DNA of 64,000 nt from Octopus vulgaris. Its lineage: Eukaryota. Positions 10,862-63,840 of this stretch are shown in pieces. The stretch is from NCBI GenBank assembly GCA_951406725.2, contig OX597818.1, positions 56,110,001 to 56,174,000 of the forward strand, written 5' to 3'. The first letter of the stretch is position 1. Each line of letters opens with the position of its first letter. Made by a program: the position numbers and the translations under genes. The notes under the pieces were generated by a model, which ran no database searches, was not told the origin of the DNA, and saw only the letters and a program-made list of their open reading frames with translations.

Positions 10862-11095
10862 CAGCATTAGCCATAAGTCACCCGACAGTAAATCAAAATT
10901 CCATAAATACTTTTCTGTAATTCTGTGTTGACTTGAATGGGAAAATGTGTCGCTCAAGAAGGACTTCAGTTTTAACAATTTTCATAATGTTTCATATTTA
11001 GATGCTTTTATTAAATTCATTCAGTTGTTAAACATAAATAAATCTTGGAATTAAATGGTTTTGGTTTACTGTCAGGTGACTTTTGGCCAACCCTG
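10862..11095. mobile_element. Tc1/mariner-type MITE
   Basis: ~37-bp imperfect TIRs (cagggttggccaaaagtcacctgacagtaaaccaaaa), TA on both sides. Confidence 0.75.
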
Positions 11096-11876
11096 TATAT
11101 ATACATTTTATATATATATATACATACACACACACAAAAGTTTTCTTCCAGTTACTGTCTACCAAATCCACTTAGAAGGCTTTGGTCAGCCCAAGGCTAT
11201 AGTAGAAAATACTTGCGAAATGTGCCATGCAGTGGGACTGAACCTGGAACCATGTGGTCAGAAAGCAAGCTTCTTACCACACAACCACGCTTGCACCTAT
11301 AAATATATTTCATTCAGTCCTTGGTTATGGTCAGTCAGAAAGTTACCATTGGTTTCGTGTCTGTTATTGCTCTTATAAGTAAACTCATTGGACTTGCTGG
11401 CCAGAGACACATAACTTCTTTACTAATGGAGGTAAGAATACAGTCTTGGTCAGCAAGGTTGTGAAAAAGGAAAACCCTGAAACAAAATTCTTTGAAGCGG
11501 AAACCCCACCTGGGGAAAGATAGAGTCATCTCCCTTTGAACCGTATTCTTACCTCTATTAATTAAAGAGCTTCCAGGTCAGATGAATCATCTATATTGCT
11601 TAAGACAATAATAGACATGAAATCAATGGTAATTTCCTGACCGATAATAATCAAGGACTACAAAATATATACATACATGATATACTTTTATTTGTTTCAG
11701 TCATTTGGCTGTGGTCATGCTGGAGCACTGCCTTTAGTCGAACAAACAGACCCCAGGACTTATTCTATCGGTCGTTTTTGCCAAACCACTAAGTTACAGG
11801 AATGTAAACACACCAACATCAGTTGTCAAGCAATTGTGTGGGGGAGAACAAACACAGACATACAAACATATATATA

Positions 11877-12237
11877 TATAATCAAAATAAGCAACAAGGA
11901 TATCCAAGGTAATGTAGTACAATCGTTTCATGCTACTTCATTTTATTAAACACTGTAAGGATTACATCAGTTTTAAAATGTCGAGCAATCTTCAGCCACA
12001 TACAGAATGCACATTCTTATACTTATTTCATAAGTATAAGAATGTGCAAACAAATATAAGAATGTGCAAATAGGTATAAGAATGTGCATTGTCCGTTTAA
12101 TTAAAAAATTCTATATGTGGCTGAAGATTGCTCGACATTTTAAAACTGATGTAATTCTTAGTGTTCAATAAAATTAAGTAGCATGAGACAATTGTACTAC
12201 TCTACCTTGGATATCCTTGTTGCTTATTTTGATTATA
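11877..12237. repeat. Long foldback (~130-150 bp arms) adjoining a TA tract; possibly a Penelope-like element end
   Basis: tataatcaaaataagcaacaaggatatccaaggta...gcaatcttcagccacata is mirrored by tatgtggctgaagattgc...taccttggatatccttgttgcttattttgattata; centre has three tataagaatgtgca repeats. Confidence 0.8.
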
Positions 12238-12482
12238 ATCACCCCCATTTGATTTATATGGATAATACCATGCAAAATTCTGGTGCCTTTAACTTAAGTA
12301 CCATATTCATCTGAATCTAAATTTTGCTGAACTTATATATATATATAATATATATATAATATATATAATGCGTGGCACCTTAGGCAAGTGTCTTCTACTA
12401 TAGCCTCAGGCCAACCAAAGCCTTGTGAGTGGATTGAGTAGACAGAAACTGAAAGAAGCCCATTATGTGTGTATATATATAT

Positions 12483-12711
12483 AGGCGGCTAGCTGGCAGA
12501 AACGTTAGCACGTCGGGCGAAATGCGTAGCCGTATTTCGTCTGCCGTTAAGTGTTCTGGGTTCAAATTCCGCCGAGGTCGACTTTGCCTTTCATCCTTTC
12601 GGGGTCGATAAATTAAGTACCAGTTACGCACTGGGGTCGATGTAATCGACTTAATCCCTTTGTCTGTCCTTGTTTGTCCCCTCTATGTTTAGCCCCTTGT
12701 GGGTAGTAAAG

Positions 12712-12714
<3 letters not shown>
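12483..12714 (+). mobile_element. SINE family C (tRNA-like head + Nin/Deu-like domain), full length
   Basis: gctggcagaaacgttagcac...gttcaaattcc...gcctttcatcctttcggggtcgataaattaagtaccag; the last motif resembles the Deu/Nin SINE central domain. Confidence 0.85.
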
Positions 12715-12752
<38 letters not shown>

Positions 12753-13884
12753 ACGGGCTTCTTTCAGTTTCCGTCTACCAAATGCACTGACAAGGCTTTG
12801 GTTGGCCCGAGGCTATAGTAGAGGACACTTACCCAAGGTGCCACACAGTGGGGATAGATACATAGATAGAGAGATAGATAGATAGATATATTTAATCAAG
12901 CCAAGGACCTACAATTATAATCCTTCAAGGGACGTTTATACAGTATGAAACTATTCAAAATTCCAGATGTTGGGTTTTCTATGATGTTCTTTTAATACCA
13001 CATTACACAGGATTAAATTTATCCTTGTGCATATTTTATTTATTTTTTTATATTTATTTACTTTATGCAATGCCTGTTCTAATTCATTAAATGAAGTTTT
13101 GTTTTAAATTTCTCTGACACTTCAAATTGGTTTTCAGTTATTAATTAAATGGTAATTAAAACTCCAGTTGTTGGTTGTAACCGCTTTCTTTTCTGACTTC
13201 AGTAGTGAGAAAATAGGAACTGGATTATCCCTAATCTCTTCTGAAGAATCTGATTTTGTGTTGTGTTGTGTTGGTTACCATTGATAACAAGATTACTGGA
13301 ATGATATCTGTCATCATCATCATTAACATTTAAGATCTGCTTTCCATGCTGGCATGGGTTGGACAGTTTGAGAGGAGCTGGCAAACCATAAGGCTGCACC
13401 AGGTTCCAGTTGTTTGTTTGGTATGGTTTTCACTGCTTGGTGCCATTCCTAATGCCAACCACTTCACAGAACAGACTGGGTGCTTTCTACATGGTGCCTT
13501 GCGAATGGATTTGGTAGAGAAACTGAGAGAAGCTCATTGTATATATATATATATATATATATATCTCTGTGTGTATATATAAGTCTTTGGTTCTGCGTTT
13601 GTGCCCCACCACTGCATGACAACCGGTGTTAGTGTGTTTACATCCCTTTAGCCTTGTGGTTCAGCAAAAGAGACTGATAGGCTAAAGAGCAGGCTTTAAA
13701 GGAAAGAAAAAACACTAGGGTCCATTTGTTCAACAAAAAAAATCCTTCGAGTTGGTGCCCCAGCATGGCCAAAGTCTAATGACTGAAACAAGTAAAAAAA
13801 TAAAAGATGAAGTCAATTTTATTTAATTGACCCTGAAGGAATTAAAAGCAAAGTACAAGTCAAACCCTCTGGCCAAGAGTATTG

Positions 13885-14300
13885 ACTGACTTGGTAGACA
13901 CCCACAAGACTTTCCACCATCTTTCCAATGACAACCTTGGACCCCTTTTTGAATTCCATATGTCTAACACTCACGGACAAAATTGAAAACAGGAAAATGA
14001 AAAAAACACAGCAGCCATGACTTCCAGAAACATTCTTTCGTGCTCAGAATTACTGAAGCATGGAACAAACCACCCACATGACTTGTTAGCTGTTGGGACA
14101 CTACATCCTCCAAAAACTTCCATGCTTCCTGGAATACACCAAAAGCATACCTGATATCCTCCAACCCCTTTTAGTCTTTTTAATAAGTCATTCACTGATC
14201 ACTTCCTGTGCATTATTCTATGTAATCTGCATGTGTACATTTGGCTACTCTTTCTGTTGAGTCGTAGTGCATTTGAGCATTGTATATAAGTTCTTTATTA
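13885..14300 (+). mobile_element. Degraded CR1-type LINE 3' end
   Basis: Homologous to 61215-61715 (cagccatgacttccagaaacattc...gaagcatggaacaaac). Confidence 0.7.
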
Positions 14301-14346
14301 TTTCATTGGAATAACTTTTGCTTTTTGTCTTTTCAACATCAATAAG

Positions 14347-14770
14347 TGGAGGCATGTGGCCAAGTGGTTAGAGCAGTGGACTTGTGGTCAAGGGATTGTG
14401 GGTTCGAATCTCAGACCAGGCGATGTATGCTTTTATGAGTGAAACACCTAAGCTCCACGTGGCTGCAGCAGACAGTAATGGCAAACTTCTGCTGACTCTC
14501 TCGCCACAGCTTCCTCTCACTCTCTCCTCCTGCATCTAGCAGCTCACCTGCGAAGGACCGGCGTCTGAGCAAAACACCTAAGCTCCCCACAGCTCTGGCA
14601 GAAGATAATGGCAAACTTCTGCTGACACTTTCGCCACAACTTTCTCTCACTTCTTCCTCCTGCATCTAGCAGCTCACCTGAGATGGATCAGATGGGGAAT
14701 CTATATGCCAATGAAACTGGAAAACCAGCCCTTATGAACCAGGCATTGCTTGAGAAGGAACAAACAACAA
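14347..14770 (+). mobile_element. tRNA-derived SINE (family D-related) with ~125-bp internal tandem duplication
   Basis: A box TGGCCAAGTGG, B box GGTTCGAATC; block aaacacctaagctcc...agcagctcacctg occurs twice; (ACA)n tail. Confidence 0.75.
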
Positions 14771-15092
14771 CAACAGGGTCAATAAAATGTGTACCATTAA
14801 AACACTGGAGTCAACTGAAATGACTAAATCCTCTCAGGAAATGTGTTACCCCTACCTTTGTTAGAACTCCATTGGCGCTTAAAGTCATGGGAATTGCACT
14901 AGTGGTACAAAAAAAAAAAAGAATCACCTAGTAGACTGTAAAGTGGTTGGCATTAGGAAGGGCATCCACCAGCAGAAACCCTGCCAATGCAGGTACTAGA
15001 GTATAATGCAGTCCTTGAGCCACGTCAGGTCCTGTCAAACCATCCAACCCTGGACATTAAGCAAGGATGATGATGATGATGATGGTATATGG

Positions 15093-15445
15093 TAGTGCTC
15101 TGCAACCAGTATGCTGCAGCATGCTGGTGTGCCATAAAACGATGCTAGGTGTGCCACAGTGTCACCTGAATATAATTTTTTTCCCCTTATACTTTTAATT
15201 ATATTTTACAGGTGTGCCACTGAATTTTGAAAAGAATATACTCTCTCTTTTACTCGTTTCAGTCATTTGATTGCGGCCATGCTGGAGCACCACCTTTAGT
15301 CAAACAAATCGACCCTGGGACTTATTCTTTGTAAGCCCAGTACTTATTCTATCGGTCTCTTTTGCCGAACCGCTAAGTGACGGGGACGTAAACACACCTG
15401 CATCGGTTGTCAAGCAATGCTAGGGGGACAAACACAGACACACAA

Positions 15446-15493
<48 letters not shown>

Positions 15494-15695
15494 GACAGGC
15501 TTCTTTCAGTTTCCGTCTACCAAATCCACTCACAAGGCATTGGTTGGCCCGGGGCTATAGTAAAAAACACTTGCCCAAGATGCCACGCAGTGGGACTGAA
15601 CCTGGAACCATGTGGTTGGTTAGCAAGCTACTTACCACACAGCCACTCCTGCGCCTATACGTATACAGCAAGTGAGAAACGGTTGCAGAGCACTG
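15093..15695. mobile_element. hAT-type MITE with a nested SINE A (15248-15656, minus)
   Basis: TIRs tagtgctctgcaacc / ggttgcagagcactg; degenerate 8-bp TSD gtatatgg/gaatatag. Confidence 0.65.
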
Positions 15696-15945
15696 GAATA
15701 TAGTGACAATGGGTCTTCATTGTTAAATAACGAGGATTTAGTTGCTCAATTAGCCAAATTACTTGGTACTGACTTAAGATGTAAGTGGTTGAATATTCCA
15801 CTGATGTGATTGCTCCTCACATAAACCTCAAGCAGAATTAGTATGACATGGTTGTACTTGTTGCATTACACATAGAATCTTAGCCAACGAGCATCTATAC
15901 AGTACCTGTCTACCCAATTTCAGTTAAAAGGTATGGGTTAATCCA

Positions 15946-16196
15946 ATCATCATCATCATCATCATTTAGCATCCACTTTCCATGCTAGCATGGGTTGGAC
16001 GGTTCAACTGGGGTCTTGGAAGCCAGAAGGCTGCACCAGGCCCAGTCTGATCTGGCAATGTTTCTACAGCTGGATGCCCTTCCAAAAGCCAACCACTCCG
16101 TGAGTGTAGTGGGTGCTTTTTACGTGCCACCCGCACAAGTGCCAGACGGGGCTGGCAAACGGCCACGGTCGGATGGTGCTTTTTATGTGCCACCGG
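15946..16196 (-). mobile_element. SINE family B
   Basis: (CAT)n then ccatgctagcatgggttggacgg...ggatgcccttcc; an opposite-orientation copy follows at ~16340-16538. Confidence 0.85.
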
Positions 16197-24774: not shown

Positions 24775-25505
24775 GTAACATTTTTTCCTGCTAAGAGTTG
24801 CTGAAGCATGGGACAAACTGCCAGCATCAGTTGTTAGTTGTCGGAGCACTGCATCCTTCAAAACTTCCATGCTTCCTGAGATTCGCCAACACTACACCTG
24901 ATTTTCTCCCCTCCATACACACGCAAGCATGGATCTGACTCATACACTGTTCACTTTCCAGACATTTGTACATTACTGCATATGCTTTATATGCACTTTT
25001 GACAAGTTGTGGGGCACCTGAGCACTGTATACAATAATTTCGCCGAGGTCGACTTTGCCTTTCATCCTTTCGGGGTCAATAAATTAAGTACCAGTTTCGC
25101 ACTGGGGTCGGTGTAATCGACTTAATCCCTTTGTCTGTCCTTGTTTGTCCCTTCTATGTTTAGCCCCTTGTGGGCAATAAAGAAATATAAATATGAGGGC
25201 ACGTAACAAACACCATCCGAGCGTGGCCGTCCGCCAGCCCCGTCTGGCACCTGTGTCGGTGGCACATAAAAAACACCATCCGAGCGTGGCCGTCTGCCAG
25301 CCTCGTCTGGCACCTGTGTCGGTGGCACATAAAATCACCCACTACACTCTCGGAGTGGTTGGCGTTAGGAAGGGCATCCAGCTGTAGAAACACTGCCAGA
25401 TCTGACTGGCCTGGTGCAGCCTTCGGGCTTGCCAGACCCCAGTTGAACCGTCCAACCCATGCTAGCATGGAAAGCGGACGTTAAACGATGATGATGATGA
25501 TGATA
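24775..25505 (+). mobile_element. Stack of CR1-type LINE 3' end (24775-25040), SINE C (25040-25185) and SINE B (25198-25505)
   Basis: Each segment matches other copies in the window. Confidence 0.8.
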
Positions 25506-29675: not shown

Positions 29676-30647
29676 ATTTCAGCATGGAAGATGTTTGTAA
29701 GCCATTCAAGAACACACAAAAACCATTACTTTCACTTCAACATTTAAACGTCCGTTTTTCATGCTATCATGGGTTGGACGGTTCGACCGGGGTCTGGGAA
29801 GCCAGGAGGCTGCACCAGGCTCCAGTCTGATCTGGCAGTGTTTCTACAGCTGGATGCCCTTCCTAATGCCAACCACTCTGAGAGTGTAGTGGGGGCTTTT
29901 TACATGCGACTGGCACAGGGTCCAGAGGAGGCTGGCAACAGCCATGATCGGTTGGTGCTTTTTATGTGCCACCGGCATGGAGCCAGCCAAGGCGGTCGGT
30001 GCTAGCATCGGCCACATTCGGATGGTGTTTTTTATGTGCCACCAGCATGGGTATCACAACTACAATTTCTATTTGATGTTCATTTTGATGTTTATGTACT
30101 TGACTCAATAGCAGGTCACCCTACGATCCAAGGTTAGCACAGCAGGCCATCCTGTGAGCCATGAACTCACTTCATTTGTCAGATCTTTGCAGTCACAGCA
30201 TATCTCAATGGTCTCGGTCTTTCGTCATTGCCTCTGTGAGGCCCAACAGGCCACCGGCACAGGTATCACAACTACAATATCCATTTGATATTTTGATGTT
30301 GATGTACTTGACACACACACACACATATATATAGGTCAGGTGGAATTTCTTGAAGCAGATTTTCTACACCTAGGTGCCCTTCTTAATGCCCTAACCCTCA
30401 AAATAATATTTTCCTATAGCAAGACAGGTTTTTCAAAGACGACTATAAACAAACAACTTCATTTTTATGATGATGATCGTCATTTAGAACCGGCACAGGA
30501 GCCAGTCTGGTGGCACTGGCAATGACCACGCTCGAATGGTGCTTTTTACGTGCAACCAGCACTGGAGCCAGTCAGGCACCACTAGCATCAACCACACTCG
30601 AATGGTGCTTTTTACATGCCACTGGCACAGGGATCCCCACCTGTCCC

Positions 30648-37066: not shown

Positions 37067-39631
37067 ATTTTTTCTGAAGAATTGTTTGAAGAAATGCTGG
37101 TATTTTTTGTGCTGCTGACAAAAAACTGCGCCTGCACGGTGGATTTGAAAAATTATAATGTATAAGCAAGAGACACATGCTGGATTTGCCTCGTACTTAT
37201 ATGTTTAATCTAGGCGAACCTGTTGATGAAGACTTCGCCTAGCAAATTATTTTATTTGCTAAAAAAAAATCAGAAACCATGGTCCAGGAAATAGATGGTA
37301 AATGTTTTTATTTTTCATTCTCTTCGAGTTTTTATCCCTAATAGTGGTTTGGACTTTAGCTGTTCCTTCTAGCATGAAAGGAATCCTATGAAGGATACCT
37401 CTTATGTGTTTGAATGTACAGTTGGCATTAGGAAGGGCATCCAGCTGTAGAAACACTGCCAGATCAGACTGGAGCCTGGTGCAGCCTTCTGGCTTCCCAG
37501 ATCCCCGGTCGAACCGTCCAACCCATGCTAGCATGGAGAACGGGCGTTAACCGATGATGATGATGATGTATATTAGTTAATTTCAATCGAGTTTGTTTTG
37601 TTTTGGAGAGAACAGAATATAAAAGCTTTCACTTTTATACTAATAACCATGGAAGACTAGTGGGAATATTATCTGCATGGACTTCAAGGGCTAGGTTGAT
37701 ATTTGGTTAGATGATTTAGGAATTAGGTATAGGTTTACTTACAGAATTATTAATTTACCGATACTGTTTTGTACTTAGGGTTAATGTGGTTTCTTTGTTG
37801 TAGTTTAATCATTAATGTTAGTGTAAACACTAACATTAATAATCTTTCCTAGAATTAAGATTGAATGAACGTGGTGATATCTGAGGTATGTTTGTTCCTA
37901 AACACTTATTTTAGTGCTGTTGACACTGCCAGATTGAATGGTACTGCCAAAGTGTCGAAACCATAGTGACATCTGTAGGGCAGCTGATGATGGGGGTATG
38001 TTGGATTGTTGATATAGCTGTTATTGTATGTGTGGAATAGTTTTATAAGACATCCATTTGATATATAAAACTGCAACATACTTGTACTTTGCTTGTCTTT
38101 GGGATTCTTAGTATTACTAAGAAGAGTTGCTGTGGTATTATGCAAGCTGTACTTGACTTAAAACCATGGTGGTGGAGCCAAAGCAGACAATAGAATCTGT
38201 CAGAGCTCTCTGGCTTGTCTGTTCTTGTTGAACCATCCAACCCATGCCAGCATGGAAAAGGGGATGTTAAATGATGATTGGTGTGTGTGTGTGGTGTGTG
38301 ATTATTTTAGCATTTACTTTTCCATGCTTGCAGGGATCAGATGGGATTAACTGAGGCAGATTTTCTGCAACTGGAGGCCCATTCCGTTTTCATAAGACAT
38401 TGGAAATGAAGGGATCCTCATTTACAACTAAATGCAATATCAGGACAAATGAGAAAACAAAAAAAAACAGAACACATGCGTTAAATCCATCCATCCATAC
38501 TCACACACAAACACAACAGGATATGTGACAGGTTTTGTGACAAGACATAACATGTGGCACTAAGTGAATATGAAGCAAAGTTATAGCTAGGATAAAGCTG
38601 AAGACTAAGAAATGGATGTATCATGTCATAACATTCACTTTTCCAGGCTTGCATGGGGCAGACAGAGTTTATTGAGGCAAATGTTCTATGGCTGGATGCC
38701 TTTCCTGTTGCTAACACTTGTTTTCAAGGGAGGTAATATTTCCCAATGGCCAGACATGTTTCTGTAGATGCTGGTTGTTAGTGAAAAACAACATTCGAGC
38801 GAGGGCGTTGCCAGTGCTGCTGGACTGGCTCCTGTGCAGGTGGCATGTAAAAACACCATTTGAGCATGGCCGTTGCCAGTACCGCCTGACTGGCCCTTGT
38901 GCCAGGGCATGTAGAAGTACCCACTACACTCTCGGAGTGGTTGGCATTATGAAGGGCATCCAACTGTAGAAACCTTGCCAGATCAGATTGGACCCTGGTG
39001 CAGCCATCTGGCTCACCAGTCCCCAGTCAAACCGTCAAACCCATGCCAGCATGGAAAACGGATGGTGACACTTGCTTACAACCATCAGACAATGTTTAGA
39101 CAAGAAGACACAAAAATACATTCACTCCACTACATGTGTGCATGTTGTGGCAGACACCCTAAGGAGAGAAGTGGACTGGCCTATTTCTGATAAATATTGG
39201 ACAGACTCAGTAAGAAGGGTCAGTCAGTGAAGTACACTGTTCGGGCCAGTCACACAGACAACGAAGTTACATCATCATAAAGTGGAACATATCAACACAC
39301 ATATACAATGAGCTTCTTTCAGTTTCCATCTAGCAAAACCACTCAAAGGGCTTTGGTTGTCTCAAAGCAATAGCAGAAAACACTTGCCCTAGTGTGGGAC
39401 TGAACCCCAAACTATCAAGTTGGGAAGCAACCTTTTTGACCATAACCATTCCTGTAAGGAAATTTAATGTCATGGATGAACTTAGAATTAACACTAACAG
39501 AGAATTGGTCTGGAGAAATAATTACAGAACTTCTCATAGCATTTCTTTCACCAATATTTTCTAATCTTCAATCCTTTTTAAAAACAATATTGTTGCACAA
39601 GAAATAAATGTTACAATTCGTTTTGTTTTAG

Positions 39632-45128: not shown

Positions 45129-45634
45129 TTTTACTTGTTTCAGTCATTTGAATGCGACCATGCTGGAGCACCCCCTTTAATCAAGCAAATTGAACCCCTG
45201 ATTTATTCTGTGTTAGCCTAGTACTTATTCTATCAGACTCCTTTGCCGAACCACTAAGTTACAGGGATGTAAACACACCAGCATCAGTTGTCAAGCGATG
45301 TTGGGGGGACAAACACAGACACACAAACATATACACACACGTAGCACCATCCGTTCATGGCTGTTGCCAGCCTCGCCTGGCCCCCGTGCCGGTGGCACGT
45401 AAAAAGCACCATGCGTCCGTGGCCGTTTGCCAGCTCCGTCTGGCACCTGTGCGGGTGGCACGTAAAAAGCACCCACTACACTCACGGAGTGGTTGGTGTT
45501 AGGAAGGGCATCCAGCCGTAGAAACACTGCCAGATCAGACTGGGCCTGATGCAGCCTTCTAGCTTCACAGACCCCAGTTGAACCGTCCAATCCATGCTAG
45601 CATGGAAAGCGGACGCATGATGATGATGATGATG

Positions 45635-52186: not shown

Positions 52187-55100
52187 AAGTTGCCGACAGA
52201 GATCAAAGAGGTTGCCGACATAGACCAAAGATAAGTACCGAAAAAGATCAAAGATGGTGCCGACAGAGATGAAAGAGGAGTACCGAAAGAGATCTTATTC
52301 GGTACTCCTCTTTGGTCTCTGTCGGCAACCTCTTTGATCTCTGTCGGCACCCTCTTTGATCTCTTTCGATCAGAGATCAAAGAGGGTGCCGAAAGAGATC
52401 AAAGAGGGTGCCGACAGAAATCAAAGAGGGTGCCGACAGAGATCAAAGGGGAGTACCGAAAAAGATCAAAGAGGGTACCGACAGAGATCAAAGAGGGTGC
52501 CGACAGAGATCAAAGAGGAGTACCGAAAGAGATCAAAGAGGGTACCGACAGAGATCAAAGAGGGTGCCGAAAGAGATCAAAGAGGAGTCCCGAAAGAGAT
52601 CAGAGGGTGCCGACAGAGATCAAAGAGGAGTACCGAAATAGATCAAAGAGGGTGCCGACAGAGATCAAAGAGGAGTACCGGAAAAGATCAAAGAGGGTTC
52701 CGACAGAGATCAAAGAGGGTGCCGACAGAGATCAAAGAGGGTGCCGACAGAGATCAAAGAGGGTGCCGACAGAGATCAAAGAGGAGTACCAAAAAAGATC
52801 AAAGACGGTTCCGACAGAGATCAAAGAGTGTGCCGACAGAGATCAAAGAGGGTGCCGGCAGAGATCAAAGAGGGTACCGACAGAGATCAAAGAGGAGTAC
52901 CGAAAAAGATCAAATAGGGTTCTGACAGAGATCAAAGAGGGTGCTGACAGAGATCAAAGAGGAGTGCCGAAAGAGATGAAAAAGGAGTACCGAAAAGATC
53001 AAAGAGGGTGCCGACAGAGACCAAAGAGGAGTACCAAAAACAGATCAAAGAGGGTGCCGACAGAGATCAAAGACGGCGCCGACAGAGATGAAAGAGGAGT
53101 ACCGAAAAAGATCAAAGAAGGTACCGACAGAGATCAAAGAGGGTGCCGAAAGAGATCAAAGAAGGGCCGACAGAGATCAAAGAGGGTGCCGAAAGAGATC
53201 AAAGAGGGGCCGACAGAGATCAAAGAGGAGTACCGAAAAAGATCAAAGGAGGTGCCGAAAGTGATCAAAGAGGAGTACCGAAAAATATCAAAGAGGAGTA
53301 CCGAAAAAGATCAAATAGAAGTACCGAAAGAGATCAAAGAGGGTACCGACAGAGATCAAAGAGGGTGCCGAAAGAGATGAAAGAGGACTACCGAAAGAGA
53401 TCAAAGAGGGTGTCGAAAGAGATCAAAGAGGGCGCCGACAGAGATCGAAGAGGGTGCCGACAGAGATCAAAGAGGGGACCGAAAGAGATCAAAGAAGGGC
53501 CGACAGAGATCAAAGAGGGTGCCGAAAGAGATCAAAGAGGGCGCCGACAGAGATCAAAGAGGGTGCCGACAGAGATCAAAGAGGACTCCCGAAGAAGATC
53601 AAAGAGGGTGCCGACAGAGATCAAAGAGGACTACCGTAAGATATCAAAGAGGGTGTCGAAAGAGATCAAAGAGGGCGCCGACAGAGACCAAAGAGGGTGC
53701 CGACAGAGATCAAAGAGGAGTACCGAAAAGATCAAGGATGGTGCCGACAGAGATGAAAGAAGAGTACAGAAAGAGATCAAAGAGGGTACCGACAGAGATC
53801 AAAGAGGGTGTCGAAAGAGATGAAAGAGGATACCGAACAGGATCAAAGAAGGTGCCGACAGAAATCAAAGAGGGTGCCGACAGAGATCAAAGAGGAGTAC
53901 CGAAAAATATCAAATAGGAGTAACGAAAGAGATCAAAGGGGGGGCGAAAGAGATGAAAAAAGACTACCGAAAGACATCAAAGAGGGTGCCGACAGAGATC
54001 AAAGAGGTTGCCGACAGAGAACAAAGAGGAGTACCGAAAAAGATCAAAGAGGGTGCCGACAGAGATCAAAGAGGGTGCCGACAGAGATCAAAGAGGAGTA
54101 CTGAAAGAGATCAAAGAGGGTACCGACAGAGATCAAAGAGGGTACCGACAGAGATCAAAGAGGGTGCCGAAAGAGATCAAAGAGGACTCTCGAAAGAGAT
54201 CAAAGAGGGTGCCGACAGAGATCAAAGGGGAGTACCGAAAGAGATCAAAGAGGACTCCCGAAGAAGATCAAAGAGGGTGCCGACATATATCAAAGAGGGT
54301 GCCGACAGAGATCAAAGAGGGTGTCGAAAGAGATCAAAGAGGGTGCCGACAGAGATCAAAGAGGGTGCCGACAGAAATCAAAGAGGAGTACCGAAAAAGA
54401 TCAAAGAGGGTTCCAACAGAGATCAAAGGGGGTGCTGACAGAGATCAAAGAGGGTGCCGGCAGAGATCAAAGAGGGTGCCGACAGAGATCAAAGAGGAGT
54501 ACCGAAAAAGTTCAAATAGGGTTCCGAGAGAGATCAAAGATGTTGCCGACAGAGATGAAAGAGGAGTACCGAAAAAGATCAAAGAAGGTGCCGACAGAGA
54601 TCAAAGAAGGTGCCGACAGAGATCAAAGCTGGCGCCGACAGAGATGAAAGAGGAGTACCGAAAAAGATCAAAGACGGTGCCGAAAGAGATCAAAGAGGGT
54701 GCCGACAGAGATCAAAGAGGGTGCCGACAGAGATCAAAGAGGGGACCGAAAGAGATGAAAGAGGACTACCGTAAGAGATCAAAGAGGGTGTCGAAAGAGA
54801 TCAAAGAGGGCGCCGACAGAGATCAAAGAGGGTGCCGACAGAGATCAAAGATAAGTACCGAAAAAGATCAAAGAGGGTGCCGACAGAGATGAAAGAGGAG
54901 TACCGAAAGAGATCAAAGAGGGTGCCGACAGAGATCAAAGAGGGTGCCGACAGAGATCAAAGAGGGTGCCGACAGAGATCAAAGAGGGTGCCGACAGAGA
55001 TCAAAGAGGGTGCCGAAAGAGATCAAAGAGGAGTACCGAAAAAGATCAAAGAGGAGTACCGAAAGAGATCAAAGAGGGTACCGACAGAGATCAAAGAGGG

Positions 55101-57406
55101 TGCCGAAAGAGATCAAAGATAAGTACCGAAAAAGATCAAAGAGGGTGCCGACAGAGATCAAAGAGGAGTACCGAAAGAGATCAAAGAGTGGGCCGACATA
55201 GATCAAAGAGGGTGCCGACAGAGATCAAAGAGGGTGCCGACAGAGATCAAAGAGGAGTACCGAAAGAGATCAAAGAGGGAACCGACAGAGATCAAAGAGG
55301 GTGCCGAAAGAGATCAAAGAGGACTCCCGAAAGAGATCAAAGACGGTGCCGACAGAGATCAAAGAGGAGTACCGACAGAGATCAAAGAGGGTGTCGATAG
55401 AGATCAAAGAGGAGTACCGAAAAAGATCAAAGAGGGTGCCGAAAGAGATGAAAGAGGACTACCGAAAGAGATCAAAGAGGGTGCCGACAGAGATCAAAGA
55501 GGAGTACCGACAGAGATCAAAGAGGGTGTCGAAAGAGATCAAAGAGGACTCCCGAAAAAGATCAAAGAGGGTGCCGACAGAGATGAAAGAGGAGTACCGA
55601 AAAAGATCAAAGACGGTGCCGACAGAGATCAAAGAGGGTGCCGACAGAGATCAAAGAGGGTGCCGAAAGAGATGAAAGAGGACTACCGAAAGAGATCAAA
55701 GAGGGTGTCGAAAGAGATCAAAGAGGGTACCGACAGAGATCAAAGAGGGTGCCGACAGAGATCAAAGAGGTGCCGAAGAGATCAAAGAGGGTACCGACAG
55801 AGATCAAAGAGGGTACCGAAAGAGATCAAAGAGGGTGCCGACATAGATCAAAGAGGGTGCCGACAGAGATCAAAGAGGGTGCCGACAGAGATCAAAGAGG
55901 GTGCCGACAGAGATCAAAGAGGGTGCCGAAAGAGATGAAAAAGGACTACCGACAGAGATCAAAGAGGTTGCCGACAGAGATCAAAGAGGAGTACCGAAAA
56001 AGATCAAAGAGGGTGCCGACAGAGATCAAAGAGGGTGCCGACAGAGATCAAAGAGGAGTACCGAAAAAGATCAAAGAGGGTGCCGACAGAGATCAAAGAG
56101 GAGTACCGAAAAAGATCAAAGAGGGTACCGACAGAGATCAAAGAGGGTGCCGACAGAGATCAAAGAGGGTGCCGACAGAGATCAAAGAGGGTGCCGACAG
56201 AGATCAAAGAGGGTGCCGACAGAGATCAAAGAGGGTGCCGACAGAGATCAAAGAGGAGTACCGAAAAGATCAAAGAGGGTGCCGACAGAGATGAAAGAGG
56301 TTGCCGAAAGAGATCAAAGAAGGACCGACAGAGATCAAAGAGGGAGCCGAAAGATATCAAAGGGGGGCCGACAGAGATCAAAGAGGAGTACCGAAAAAGA
56401 TCAAAGAGGAGTACCGAAAAAGATCAAAGAGGGTGCCGACAGATATCAAAGAGGGTGCCGACATAGATCAAAGAGGAGTACCGAAAAAGATCAAAGAGGA
56501 GTACCGAAAAAGATCAAAGAGGGTGCCGACAGAGATCAAAGAGGGTGTCGACAGAGATCAAAGAGGAGTACCGAAAAAGATCAAAGAGGGTACCGACAGA
56601 GATCAAAGAGGGTGCTTTTTCGGTACTCCTCTTTGGTCTCTGTCGGCACCCTCTTTGATCTCTTTCGACAACCTCTTTGTTCTCTTTCGGTACTCCTTTT
56701 TCATCTCTTTCGGCACTCCTCTTTGATCTCTGTCGGCACCCTCTTTGATCTCTGTCGGCACCCTCTTTGATCTCTGTCGGCACCCTCTTTGATCTTTTTC
56801 GGTACTCCTCTTTGATCTCTGTCGACACCCTCTTTGATCTCTGTCGGCCCCTCTTTGATCTCTTTCGGCACCCTCTTTGATCTTTGATCTTTTTCGGTAC
56901 TCCTCTTTGATCTCTTTCGACAATCTCTTTGATCTCTTTCGGCACTCCTCTTTGATCTCTGTCGGTACCCTCTTTGATCTTTTTCGGTACTCCTCTTTGA
57001 TCTCTGTCGGCAACCTCTTTGCTCTCTATCGGCACCCTCTTTGATCTTTCGACAACCTCTTTGATCTCTTTCGGTACTCGTTTTTCATCTCTTTTGGTAC
57101 TCCTCTTTGATCTTTTTCGGTACTCCTCTTTGGTCTCTTTCGGCAACCTCTTTGATCTCTGTCGGCACACTCTTTGATCTCTTTCGACAACCTCTTTGAT
57201 CTCTTTCGGTACTCCTTTTTCATCTCTTTCGGTCTCTGTCGGCAACCTCTTTGATCTCTGTCGGCACCCTCTTTGATCTCTTTCGACAACGTCTTTGATC
57301 TCTTTCGGCACCCCTCTTTGATCTTTTTCGACAGAGATCAAAGAGGAGTACCGAAAAAGATCAAAGAGGGTGCCGACAGAGATCAAAGAGGAGTATCGAA
57401 AAAGAT
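52187..57406. repeat. ~5.2 kb minisatellite of 22-bp (GAGATCAAAGAGGGTGCCGACA) and 23-bp (AAGATCAAAGAGGAGTACCGAAA) variant units with internal inversions
   Basis: Directly visible; orientation + ~52187-52294, - ~52295-52368, + ~52369-56614, - ~56615-57329, + ~57330-57406. Confidence 0.97.
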
Positions 57407-62385: not shown

Positions 62386-62552
62386 CGCATCCGCGCTAGC
62401 TAGTCATGACTAGTCGACCCTGACTGTTTTTGTGTGTTATTTACTTTAACAAAAATTGTTTACTCAGTGTAAAAAAATTATTTATTTTGTGTTTTATTTA
62501 CTTTGCTAAGAGTCGTAGGATCGACTAGTCACGACTAGCTATCGCGGATGCG
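62386..62552. repeat. CpG-rich ~35-bp inverted repeat around an AT-rich spacer
   Basis: cgcatccgcgctagctagtcatgactagtcgacc vs ggatcgactagtcacgactagctatcgcggatgcg. Confidence 0.8.
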
Positions 62553-62553
62553 A

Positions 62554-63135
62554 TTTGACTGAGGACTGGCGAACCAGATGGCTGCACCAGGCTCCAATCT
62601 GATCTGGCAGGGTTTCTACAGCTGGATGCCCTTTCTAATGCCAACCACTCAGAGAGTGTAGTGGGTGCTTTTACATGCCACCAGCACAAGGGCCAGTCTG
62701 GTGGTACTGGCAACAGCCATGCTCAGATGGTGTTTTTTATGTTCCACCTGCACAGGAGAGTCCAGTGGCACTGGCAACGACCTCACTCGAATACTTTTTC
62801 ACGTGCCACCGGCACAAGTGCCAGTAAGGAGTCACTAGTAACGATCACGTTCAAATGGTGCTTTTACGTGCCACCACCACAGAAGCCAGTCAGTTGCTCT
62901 GGCAACGATCACACTCGGATGGTGCTCTTAGCGCTTTCATTAGCACGGATGCCAGTCATGGAATCTGATTTCGATTTCTCTTGCCTCAACAGGTCTTCGC
63001 AAGCAGAGTTTAGGGTCCAAAGGAGGAAAAGGTACGCATAAGCGGGCTGGTTACACCGCTGGCATAAGCAACGAGGTTATGGTCTCACTTGGCTTGCTGG
63101 GTTTTCTCAAACACAGCTTATTTCCATAGGTCACT
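62554..63135 (-). mobile_element. SINE family B, long copy with several internal ~45-60 bp repeats
   Basis: Repeated gtgcttttacgtgccacc units. Confidence 0.8.
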
Positions 63136-63159
63136 GTTGAGACAATGATGATTAAAATG

Positions 63160-63400
63160 TTTACATTATTTACATTTGACGGATATTTGTCCTCATCTTG
63201 TTTGTTGTTAACACAATGTTTCGGCCGATATACCCTCCAGCCTTCATTAGGTGTCTTGGGGAAATTTCAAACCTGGGTTCTTATTCCTAAGGTATTTTTC
63301 AATATCATTATCATTATTATTATTCAGGTCACTGCCTGGAATCGAACTCGGAATCTTGGAGTTAATAGCCCACGCTCTTAACCTCTATGCCATATGCCTG

Positions 63401-63436
<36 letters not shown>

Positions 63437-63578
63437 TCGAAAATACCTTAGGACTGAAAACCCAGTTTTGAAATTTCCCCAAGACACCTGATGAAGGCTG
63501 GAGGGTATATCAGCCGAAACATTGTGTTAACAACAAACAAGATGAGGACAAATATCCATCAAATGTAAATAATGTAAA
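63160..63578. mobile_element. tRNA-headed element with ~145-bp inverted arms bearing Penelope-type hammerhead motifs
   Basis: Arms 63160-63305 / 63434-63578; central minus-strand tRNA-like head 63325-63400 (TGGCATAGAGG, GAGTTCGATTCC) between (AAT)n tracts. Confidence 0.8.
63483..63528 (+). ncRNA. Minimal type I hammerhead ribozyme motif
   Basis: Stem I gacac/gtgtt, core CTGATGA(A), stem II ggctg/cagcc, GAAA, vestigial stem III ACAT, putative cleavage after 63523. Confidence 0.65.
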
Positions 63579-63840
63579 TAATGTACATAATTCCTCATCT
63601 CTTAAATAGAGAATTTGTATTATTAAAAGGCAAAGTATGTTAATAACATTAGTCATTAACCCTCTCAGACCAGGGCCCCTGTGCCTAATTTTACCCTCCA
63701 CCCGGAGGGCTCCTGAGCAAAACAATAAATAGTTGCACACACAGCTCAAGAGTAACGATTGCAGGCAAACCAATGGACAGAATCACTAAAAAAATTCACA
63801 ACAATAATAATAATAATAATAAGTAGTAGTAGTAGTAGTT

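Follow-up and report, generated by a model that had tools for sequence, protein, structure and literature searches.

In the 2.8-Gb genome of Octopus vulgaris, a repeat with the outward look of a tRNA-headed SINE is almost certainly the terminus of a Penelope-like retroelement, and most copies of that element begin exactly at the tRNA-like head. Because they do so, RNA polymerase III (Pol III) likely switches the element on; we put at roughly 0.55 the probability that the head acts as an internal Pol III promoter, with the short copies being run-off cDNAs from master RNAs. The copy under study lies in a 64,000-nt window (contig OX597818.1, positions 56,110,001 to 56,174,000), which is the whole stretch of DNA that was analysed. 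It is a dead, 5'-truncated, inverted insertion of the pseudo-LTR of a protein-coding Penelope-like element, with the unequal 3' ends typical of such insertions; short of its 5'-edge features, the locus is an ordinary Penelope remnant. Its parts are as follows.

63322..63402, minus strand: tRNA-like head of the pseudo-LTR; the copy starts 3 nt before the tRNA-like +1 (63399)
63382..63392, minus strand: A-box-like motif, with 2 changes from the family majority
63339..63347, minus strand: B box, intact
63304..63321, minus strand: (AAT)n spacer separating the head from the arm in the minus copy
63160..63303, minus strand: arm of the minus copy, i.e. the end of the 5' UTR and the decayed ORF start, ending at the short (S) 3' site
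63210..63255, minus strand: minimal type I hammerhead, core mutated to CTAATGA, stem III ACAT (35.3 bits, covariance model)
63403..63436, plus strand: (AAT)n where the plus copy has its 5'-truncation/inversion point
63437..63620, plus strand: arm of the plus copy, i.e. the decayed ORF start and a tail of ~35 nt, ending at the long (L) 3' site
63483..63528, plus strand: minimal type I hammerhead within the reading frame, stem III ACAT versus ACGT in the family (46.6 bits)

Inspection of the sequence places a head, (AAT)n and two inverted arms at the locus, each arm with a Penelope-type minimal hammerhead. The original prediction had described a minus-strand tRNA-like head with A and B boxes reading through (AAT)n into an arm of ~145 bp, with an inverted copy of the arm opposite and a hammerhead layout in both arms, the core being intact on the plus strand and CTAATGA on the minus strand. 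All of this was borne out: the head runs from 63402, with the A-box-like motif at 63392-63382 and the B box at 63347-63339, and the arms (63153-63298 and 63440-63585, 146 nt) are 93% complementary. Its right border at 63578 was too short, as the plus arm extends to ~63620, ~35 nt past the end of the minus arm, and this extension is the Penelope 'tail'. Within the plus-arm ORF start, the start codon is mutated and in-frame stops are present; it matches the N-terminus of a family homolog (P0003) at 50% over 22 aa (E 4e-5). No tandem array occurs at the locus, and no obvious target-site duplication was seen by eye in its flanks. Elsewhere in the window are a minisatellite of ~5 kb (52371-57330) with 22/45/67-bp units and an orientation flip near 56616, a MITE-like structure (62386-62552) of 36-nt inverted repeats, 92% complementary, around a 95-nt AT-rich core, and 63-66-bp tandem units of another abundant repeat at 62664-62930, 25198-25334, 30488-30631, 38784-38913 and 45343-45473.

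The search for an autonomous element with reverse transcriptase (RT) and GIY-YIG domains sharing the arm, proposed with the original prediction, was successful, and the arm proved to be the start of that element's ORF. The majority over fetched copies is a 2,679-nt (2.68-kb) unit with a single 831-aa ORF uninterrupted by stops; it runs from the head through (AAT)n, the hammerhead-bearing start of the ORF, the RT and GIY-YIG to the stop, after which 26 nt lead to the next head. The ATG lies 155 nt after the tRNA-like +1, the hammerhead falls within the first 25 codons and is thus coding, and the stop codon precedes the next head by 26 nt. In 27 of 29 loci picked by ORF-end sequence, the end of the ORF continues straight into the head; the RT lies further upstream of that sequence, and downstream the arm leads into the 5' part of the ORF and its N-terminus. 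The order is confirmed within single loci, among them L288, where one 92% match spans head, ORF and next head, as well as L289, which is similar, and L299. Duplicated or overlapping loci (~20 and 40 identifiers) were removed before the majority unit, the counts over 195 arms given below and the 3'-end counts were derived.

The RT is supported by an RVT_1 domain match (E 5.5e-10), and 2414 homologs at E <= 1e-40 were found among 7999 scored. GIY-YIG (PF01541) is assigned to four of the 120 homologs listed; Pfam gives no GIY-YIG match on L082, and we take the C-terminus of the octopus family to be GIY-YIG by its motif. No solved structure was found by sequence. The reading frame of the arm is conserved in P0003 (55% identical overall), at 49% over aa 8-130; identity to the nearest homologs, P0001-P0005, is 55-68%. 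On every feature examined, the family is an EN+ Penelope-like element (PLE): one ORF with RT and C-terminal GIY-YIG, a pseudo-LTR arising from partial tandems, a minimal type I hammerhead with palindromic stem III within that pseudo-LTR, and an inverted 5'-truncated partner with a 30-40-bp tail at one end. The layout shared with the anole Poseidon element PAc, together with its motifs, suggests a Penelope/Poseidon-like placement. Private changes are spread evenly across the three codon positions (310/319/322) and recurrent changes favour third positions (18/13/46), which argues for at least two coding source lineages whose copies afterwards decayed neutrally. The family is present in five organisms. 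None of the copies fetched is intact, and the family may therefore be extinct.

Several other observations were made on or near family members. Internal deletions in L149, L132, L142 and L153 join the ORF N-terminus directly to a second head/arm, and the order in L149 (head, arm, N-terminus, head, arm) is possibly that of a mini non-autonomous form. Within 1 kb of one family copy lies a C2H2 zinc-finger array ORF, open over 261 aa (L042:2-784). The genome also holds a second, young Penelope-like family (L301:1540-5181, plus strand; L302; L303), with frames of up to 1214 aa and many near-identical copies, which by its motifs is presumably Neptune-like; its strand is C-rich, and a hammerhead variant with a CTGTTGA core occurs at both ends (27.1 bits).

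Linkage of head and arm holds well beyond the window. Loci picked by the arm carry the head in 24 of 29 cases and loci picked by the head carry a piece of the arm in 27 of 29. Among 94 heads sampled by position, taken in order along contig 1 and including one apparent duplicate (L208/L209), an arm follows within 600 nt downstream in 73 and is found on either side in 82; an inverted arm lies upstream of 59, and 12 have no arm on either side. In several of the armless cases, unrelated sequence starts within (AAT)n and is read as a later insertion. The spacer is often followed by unrelated repeats, some of them coding-like (L204, L218, L222, L224, L236; L038, L040), consistent with microsatellite-targeting elements inserting there. 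That (AAT)n tracts attract other elements is the sole point in favour of an unrelated SINE head having landed by chance between two hammerhead repeats at the locus, a reading already refuted by these linkage counts and by the fixed order of ORF, head and arm, and whose probability we consider practically nil.

Rfam made no hammerhead call at the locus, returning miRNA-hairpin noise only, and neither Rfam nor ARAGORN called a tRNA there; single-strand folding of the locus was no better than that of shuffles (z -1.6, -1.0, -0.3). As these tools gave no relevant calls, independent models were built. A covariance model was made from 16 hammerhead-like motifs of unrelated Penelope-like metagenome relatives, chosen by core pattern; in this training set stems I and II covary, with 60 two-sided changes, and none of 500 shuffles reached as high. 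Applied to the window, the model ranks the two arms first, at 46.6 and 35.3 bits, the next best hit having 16.7, such that the proposed check by hammerhead models failed with Rfam and succeeded with the custom model. On the plus strand, the core CTGATGA occupies 63488-63494, stem II 63496-63515 and GAAA 63516-63519, and the cut is predicted after 63523. Stem III most often reads as the palindrome GAAACGTT, present in 61 of 195 arms, with the CpG-decay forms ACAT (22) and ATGT (19) next in frequency, which argues that ACAT in the window is a product of decay, as the original prediction had guessed from an ACGT ancestor, and the consensus it called for is indeed palindromic at stem III. The minus arm has additionally lost one core G. 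Both core words are intact in 32 of the 195 arms, and co-folding of two copies did not yield a dimeric hammerhead fold, a result that speaks neither for nor against activity as a dimer. The commonest core variant, CTGAAGA (23 of 195), at arm position 59, changes Asp to Glu in frame and appears to track one ORF subfamily; the change falls on the free N7 position of the hammerhead.

The 3' ends of the arms fall at two sites ~35-40 nt apart (80 short, 52 long and five other, among 137 arms), and 35 of 42 inverted pairs join a long end to a short one, as does the pair in the window, with its long plus arm and short minus arm. PLEs are known for inverted 5'-truncated partners with a 30-40-bp tail at one end, in the part of the source available (PMC8557442), and for minimal hammerheads in opposite-strand pairs 100-700 bp apart, in the accessible text of PMC4209133. 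In the available portion of PMC11167929, the PAc protein initiates reverse transcription at two internal sites within the start of the ORF and needs RNA reaching to ORF nt 172; the hammerhead of PAc overlaps with its start codon, and it cleaves only when protein is present. For the short octopus unit, no head-to-tail arrangement was noticed, its copies being single or inverted head to head, and membership among the non-LTR retrozymes was set aside because it calls for a head-to-tail tandem array of hammerheads.

A profile of eight tRNA genes from the same genome matches the family head (E 8.6e-8), the best single match among six isotypes sampled being tRNA-Arg(TCG). The head thus resembles that of tRNA-derived SINEs in being tRNA-related and in having both A and B boxes. 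Among the 33 relatives with a visible 3' region, none has A/B boxes in that region and 21 have a hammerhead-like motif; since the boxes are missing from all 33, the head looks like a gain of the octopus lineage. Some tRNA-like matches near metagenome relatives (L310, L325, L319, L343) were discarded as flanking or spurious, as they lie outside the pseudo-LTR. By analogy with other PLEs (PMC2377424, PMC6765202), the head sits where the promoter is expected.

It is the 5' edge that speaks for a promoter. Exact 20-mer matches number 919 just upstream of the head as opposed to 4056 in its 5' part and 3864 in its 3' part, giving a rough estimate, calibrated on 17-27 ORF-linked copies, of ~2,500 copies upstream versus 11,000-16,000 of the head. 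The 5' ends of the 94 anchors fall at -22 to +9 in 63 cases, inside the head in 24, beyond -200 in seven and at -199 to -23 in none. Thus copies begin at the head as in tRNA-derived SINEs, and the start of the window head falls in the zone common to most family copies. Genuine copy sequence in the head-start class reaches to about -6/-7, 13 nt upstream of the A box; the seeming starts at -10 to -22 were rejected as fold-back sequence that resembles the native upstream by chance. In a replicate of 40 copies, which still includes apparent duplicates (L402-404, L416/L419), 32 start at the head, and the remaining eight end at about -23, -61, -180 and -215 and, in four cases (three of them apparent duplicates), beyond -300. 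As four of these eight upstream-linked copies end between -23 and -215, longer templates must also have existed. Among six N-terminus-bearing loci that reach the head, only one (L148/L297) begins exactly at the edge, with L297 at -1, and one runs past. The stops come after the tRNA-like part has been copied, which an RNA end predicts and a roadblock does not.

The same pile-up could arise without a promoter if the head were a passenger, i.e. an old tRNA/SINE retrocopy with an (AAT)n tail that became fixed in the master UTR of this Penelope-like element, the starts being due to snap-back of cDNA, processing of a tRNA fold or a coincident Pol II start. We judge this unlikely, while according it real weight. 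Head plus (AAT)n is shaped like a simple retrocopy, a 4-5-bp palindrome sits exactly at the 5' edge (-7 to +5), and at least nine of the 63 head-start junctions are fold-backs on it, so that part of the pile-up could come from snap-back even if no RNA ended at this point; however, in many copies that start at the head, the junction with flank or inverted arm shows no fold-back. The site at which RNase P processes tRNA precursors, +1, is also the commonest single start (9 of 94); yet bases -1 to -7, which would be lost on cleavage at +1, are still present in many of the head-start copies. The cloverleaf of the head is decayed whereas the B box is its best-kept part (463 of 476 matches as opposed to 3105 of 3336 elsewhere), which argues against a passenger, alignment seeding possibly contributing to the difference. 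Also in favour of this reading, and against Pol III, is the internal promoter with a DPE of Drosophila virilis Penelope, like those of Drosophila LINEs, as given in the portion of PMC2377424 consulted.

The run of four T residues (T4) that would terminate Pol III transcription bears on both readings. On the sense strand of the majority unit, there is no T4 in 2,679 nt, versus 30 runs of four A. Expectation under codon-preserving nulls is 3.0-4.6 (P 0.025 with codon shuffling and 0.003 with a four-fold-site null), and the absence is weaker under dinucleotide (Markov-1, P 0.06) and trinucleotide (Markov-2, P 0.20) nulls, a lack of significance that favours the passenger reading. Runs of four G are likewise absent from the sense strand. 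Against a passenger, a T4-free strand is rare among relatives: in a comparison with 80 metagenome relatives, none of the 49 of at least 1.5 kb is T4-free, with T4 absent from two shorter ones (L330 at 1.4 kb and another at 1 kb), and 15 low-T relatives have 1.6 T4/kb (40 observed, 37.6 expected). No T4 depletion was seen in the young Neptune-like family of the same genome. Sixteen aged copies of the octopus family have 0.53 T4/kb at scattered sites, and a synonymous change creating T4 occurs in three of 16 long copies. Taken together, T4 gives moderate support for Pol III. In three RNA-seq runs (organism B), depth is equal on both strands, with no site where many molecules begin, a pattern that gives no verdict, because copies embedded in host transcripts would look alike.

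On the preferred reading, that the head is an internal Pol III promoter, the following mechanism can be proposed. Pol III would initiate the RNA ~6 nt upstream of the tRNA-like +1, which is 13 nt ahead of the A box. The element's protein would then nick target DNA and start reverse transcription internally at two sites in the tail, as PAc does. Priming at the first (5') pseudo-LTR and run-off at the 5' end of the RNA would give a head+arm copy of ~300 nt, and priming at the second pseudo-LTR would give long copies; the small palindrome at the RNA 5' end, or a second priming event, would add the inverted partner. Thousands of SINE-looking short copies would in this manner be by-products. Run-off as the origin of the short copies is drawn from the behaviour of PAc, and a minority may stem from solo sources. 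Since the sense strand carries no T4 terminator, the entire ORF could be transcribed by Pol III, this being the weakest step. Uncapped Pol III RNA is poorly translated, and that the whole coding RNA is made by Pol III is at present a doubtful proposition. Equally tentative is the history that we would propose, in which a tRNA-derived promoter was captured into the pseudo-LTR, T4 terminators were purged from the 2.7-kb sense strand and SINE-like copies were shed by internal priming.

The original prediction was of a non-autonomous Pol III SINE with a borrowed Penelope end. What survives of it is the start of the short copies at the head, as expected of a Pol III RNA; what does not is the borrowing, since the head is part of an autonomous element (27 of 29 loci) and the arm is the start of its ORF. 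A non-autonomous family would be distinct from its partner and have a head that the partner lacks, neither of which was found; the short copies, albeit SINE-like in behaviour, fail as SINEs because their head belongs to the autonomous unit. Divergence is 4.6% among 51 short copies and 5.0% among 56 ORF-linked ones, no site outside the search anchor is diagnostic of either class, and the same two head variants occur in both; three head positions that had seemed diagnostic were discarded, since the short copies had been selected with an anchor that includes them. Subfamilies and age are thereby shared between short and long copies, giving no sign of a separate SINE. A true SINE, whose solo head+arm copies Pol III would transcribe and the Penelope protein would copy anew in trans, making them a lineage of their own, is accordingly improbable. 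It would fit the ~4:1 excess of short over ORF-linked copies, the 12 heads of 94 with no arm and the content of the short unit (A/B boxes, both RT start sites and zero T4), but several of the armless heads are the insertions within (AAT)n mentioned above, and the RNA length that PAc needs reaches past the RT start region into sequence that solo copies would, by analogy, not have (PMC11167929, in the part available). It would also fit the sharing of changes between the arms of one insertion: the arms of 83 inverted pairs share 38 of ~360 non-CpG changes, 3.5-fold above the cross-locus baseline of 10.7. These shared changes are few, if above baseline, which argues that templates were near-master, with two subfamilies; ~90% of changes are post-insertion, and the two ORF subfamilies can explain the shared remainder.

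The family bears on how PLEs are transcribed, what makes them leave short inverted copies behind and how they give rise to non-coding hammerhead repeats. It gives a genome-wide footprint that fits the internal initiation seen with PAc in vitro and through it a map of the RNA 5' end, and it means that ~10^4 repeats which annotation would file as SINEs are Penelope termini. For a transposon that codes for protein, a Pol III promoter would be out of the ordinary; if the head does work as one, a coding retroelement would be using a class of promoter that is confined, in the literature consulted, to non-autonomous elements, and how a Pol III RNA is translated and what the in-frame hammerhead does would become testable questions. 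On the tentative history proposed above, Penelope elements could lead directly to hammerhead repeats with a tRNA head, of which Sm-alpha is one. A literature search turned up no autonomous PLE for which a tRNA-derived promoter is described, Repbase/Dfam, subscription papers and supplements, which may contain the family, being outside its scope; octopus Penelope families are listed in the accessible part of PMC13282606, which gives no such detail there.

Among known systems, tRNA-derived SINEs share with the octopus copies an A/B-box head, a discrete 5' start, a length of ~300 nt and ~10^4 copies, but whereas they use a borrowed LINE tail, the 3' part of the octopus repeat is its own ORF start with PLE-type ends, no separate lineage having been found. 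The Sm-alpha/Sj-alpha repeats of Schistosoma are likewise short, tRNA-related and present in many copies, with a hammerhead downstream of a promoter of the Pol III type; they are non-coding, frequently arranged in tandem and equipped with a canonical hammerhead, the available portions of PMC6765202 and PMC2770079 naming no autonomous partner for them, whereas the octopus copies are dispersed and inverted and form the end of a coding element. Animal non-LTR retrozymes are also short hammerhead repeats related to PLE pseudo-LTRs (PMC7229834 and bioRxiv 10.64898/2026.07.22.740005, accessible parts), but they form head-to-tail tandem arrays giving circular RNAs, and no such array was noticed for the octopus short unit; the accessible text of the preprint makes no mention of tRNA, promoter or Pol III. 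The TRIMp3 elements (Cassandra, Helenus and Ajax) have in common with it a small-RNA-derived Pol III promoter within a terminal repeat, proposed to come from insertion of a SINE, yet, as far as the consulted part of PMC10886601 goes, these are non-autonomous LTR elements whose autonomous partners are argued to be Pol II-dependent, whereas the octopus head belongs to an autonomous PLE. The closest likeness is to PAc of Anolis carolinensis (PMC11167929) and to the PLE minimal hammerheads (PMC4209133), both as given in the portions available: a single ORF with RT and C-terminal GIY-YIG, a pseudo-LTR, a minimal type I hammerhead overlapping the ORF start with a palindromic stem III and a cut predicted to lie downstream of the start codon, 3' ends at two sites separated by 30-40 nt, and inverted 5'-truncated partners. 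Unlike these, the octopus family has an A/B-box head 155 nt before its ATG, a sense strand free of T4 and copies that mostly start at that head.
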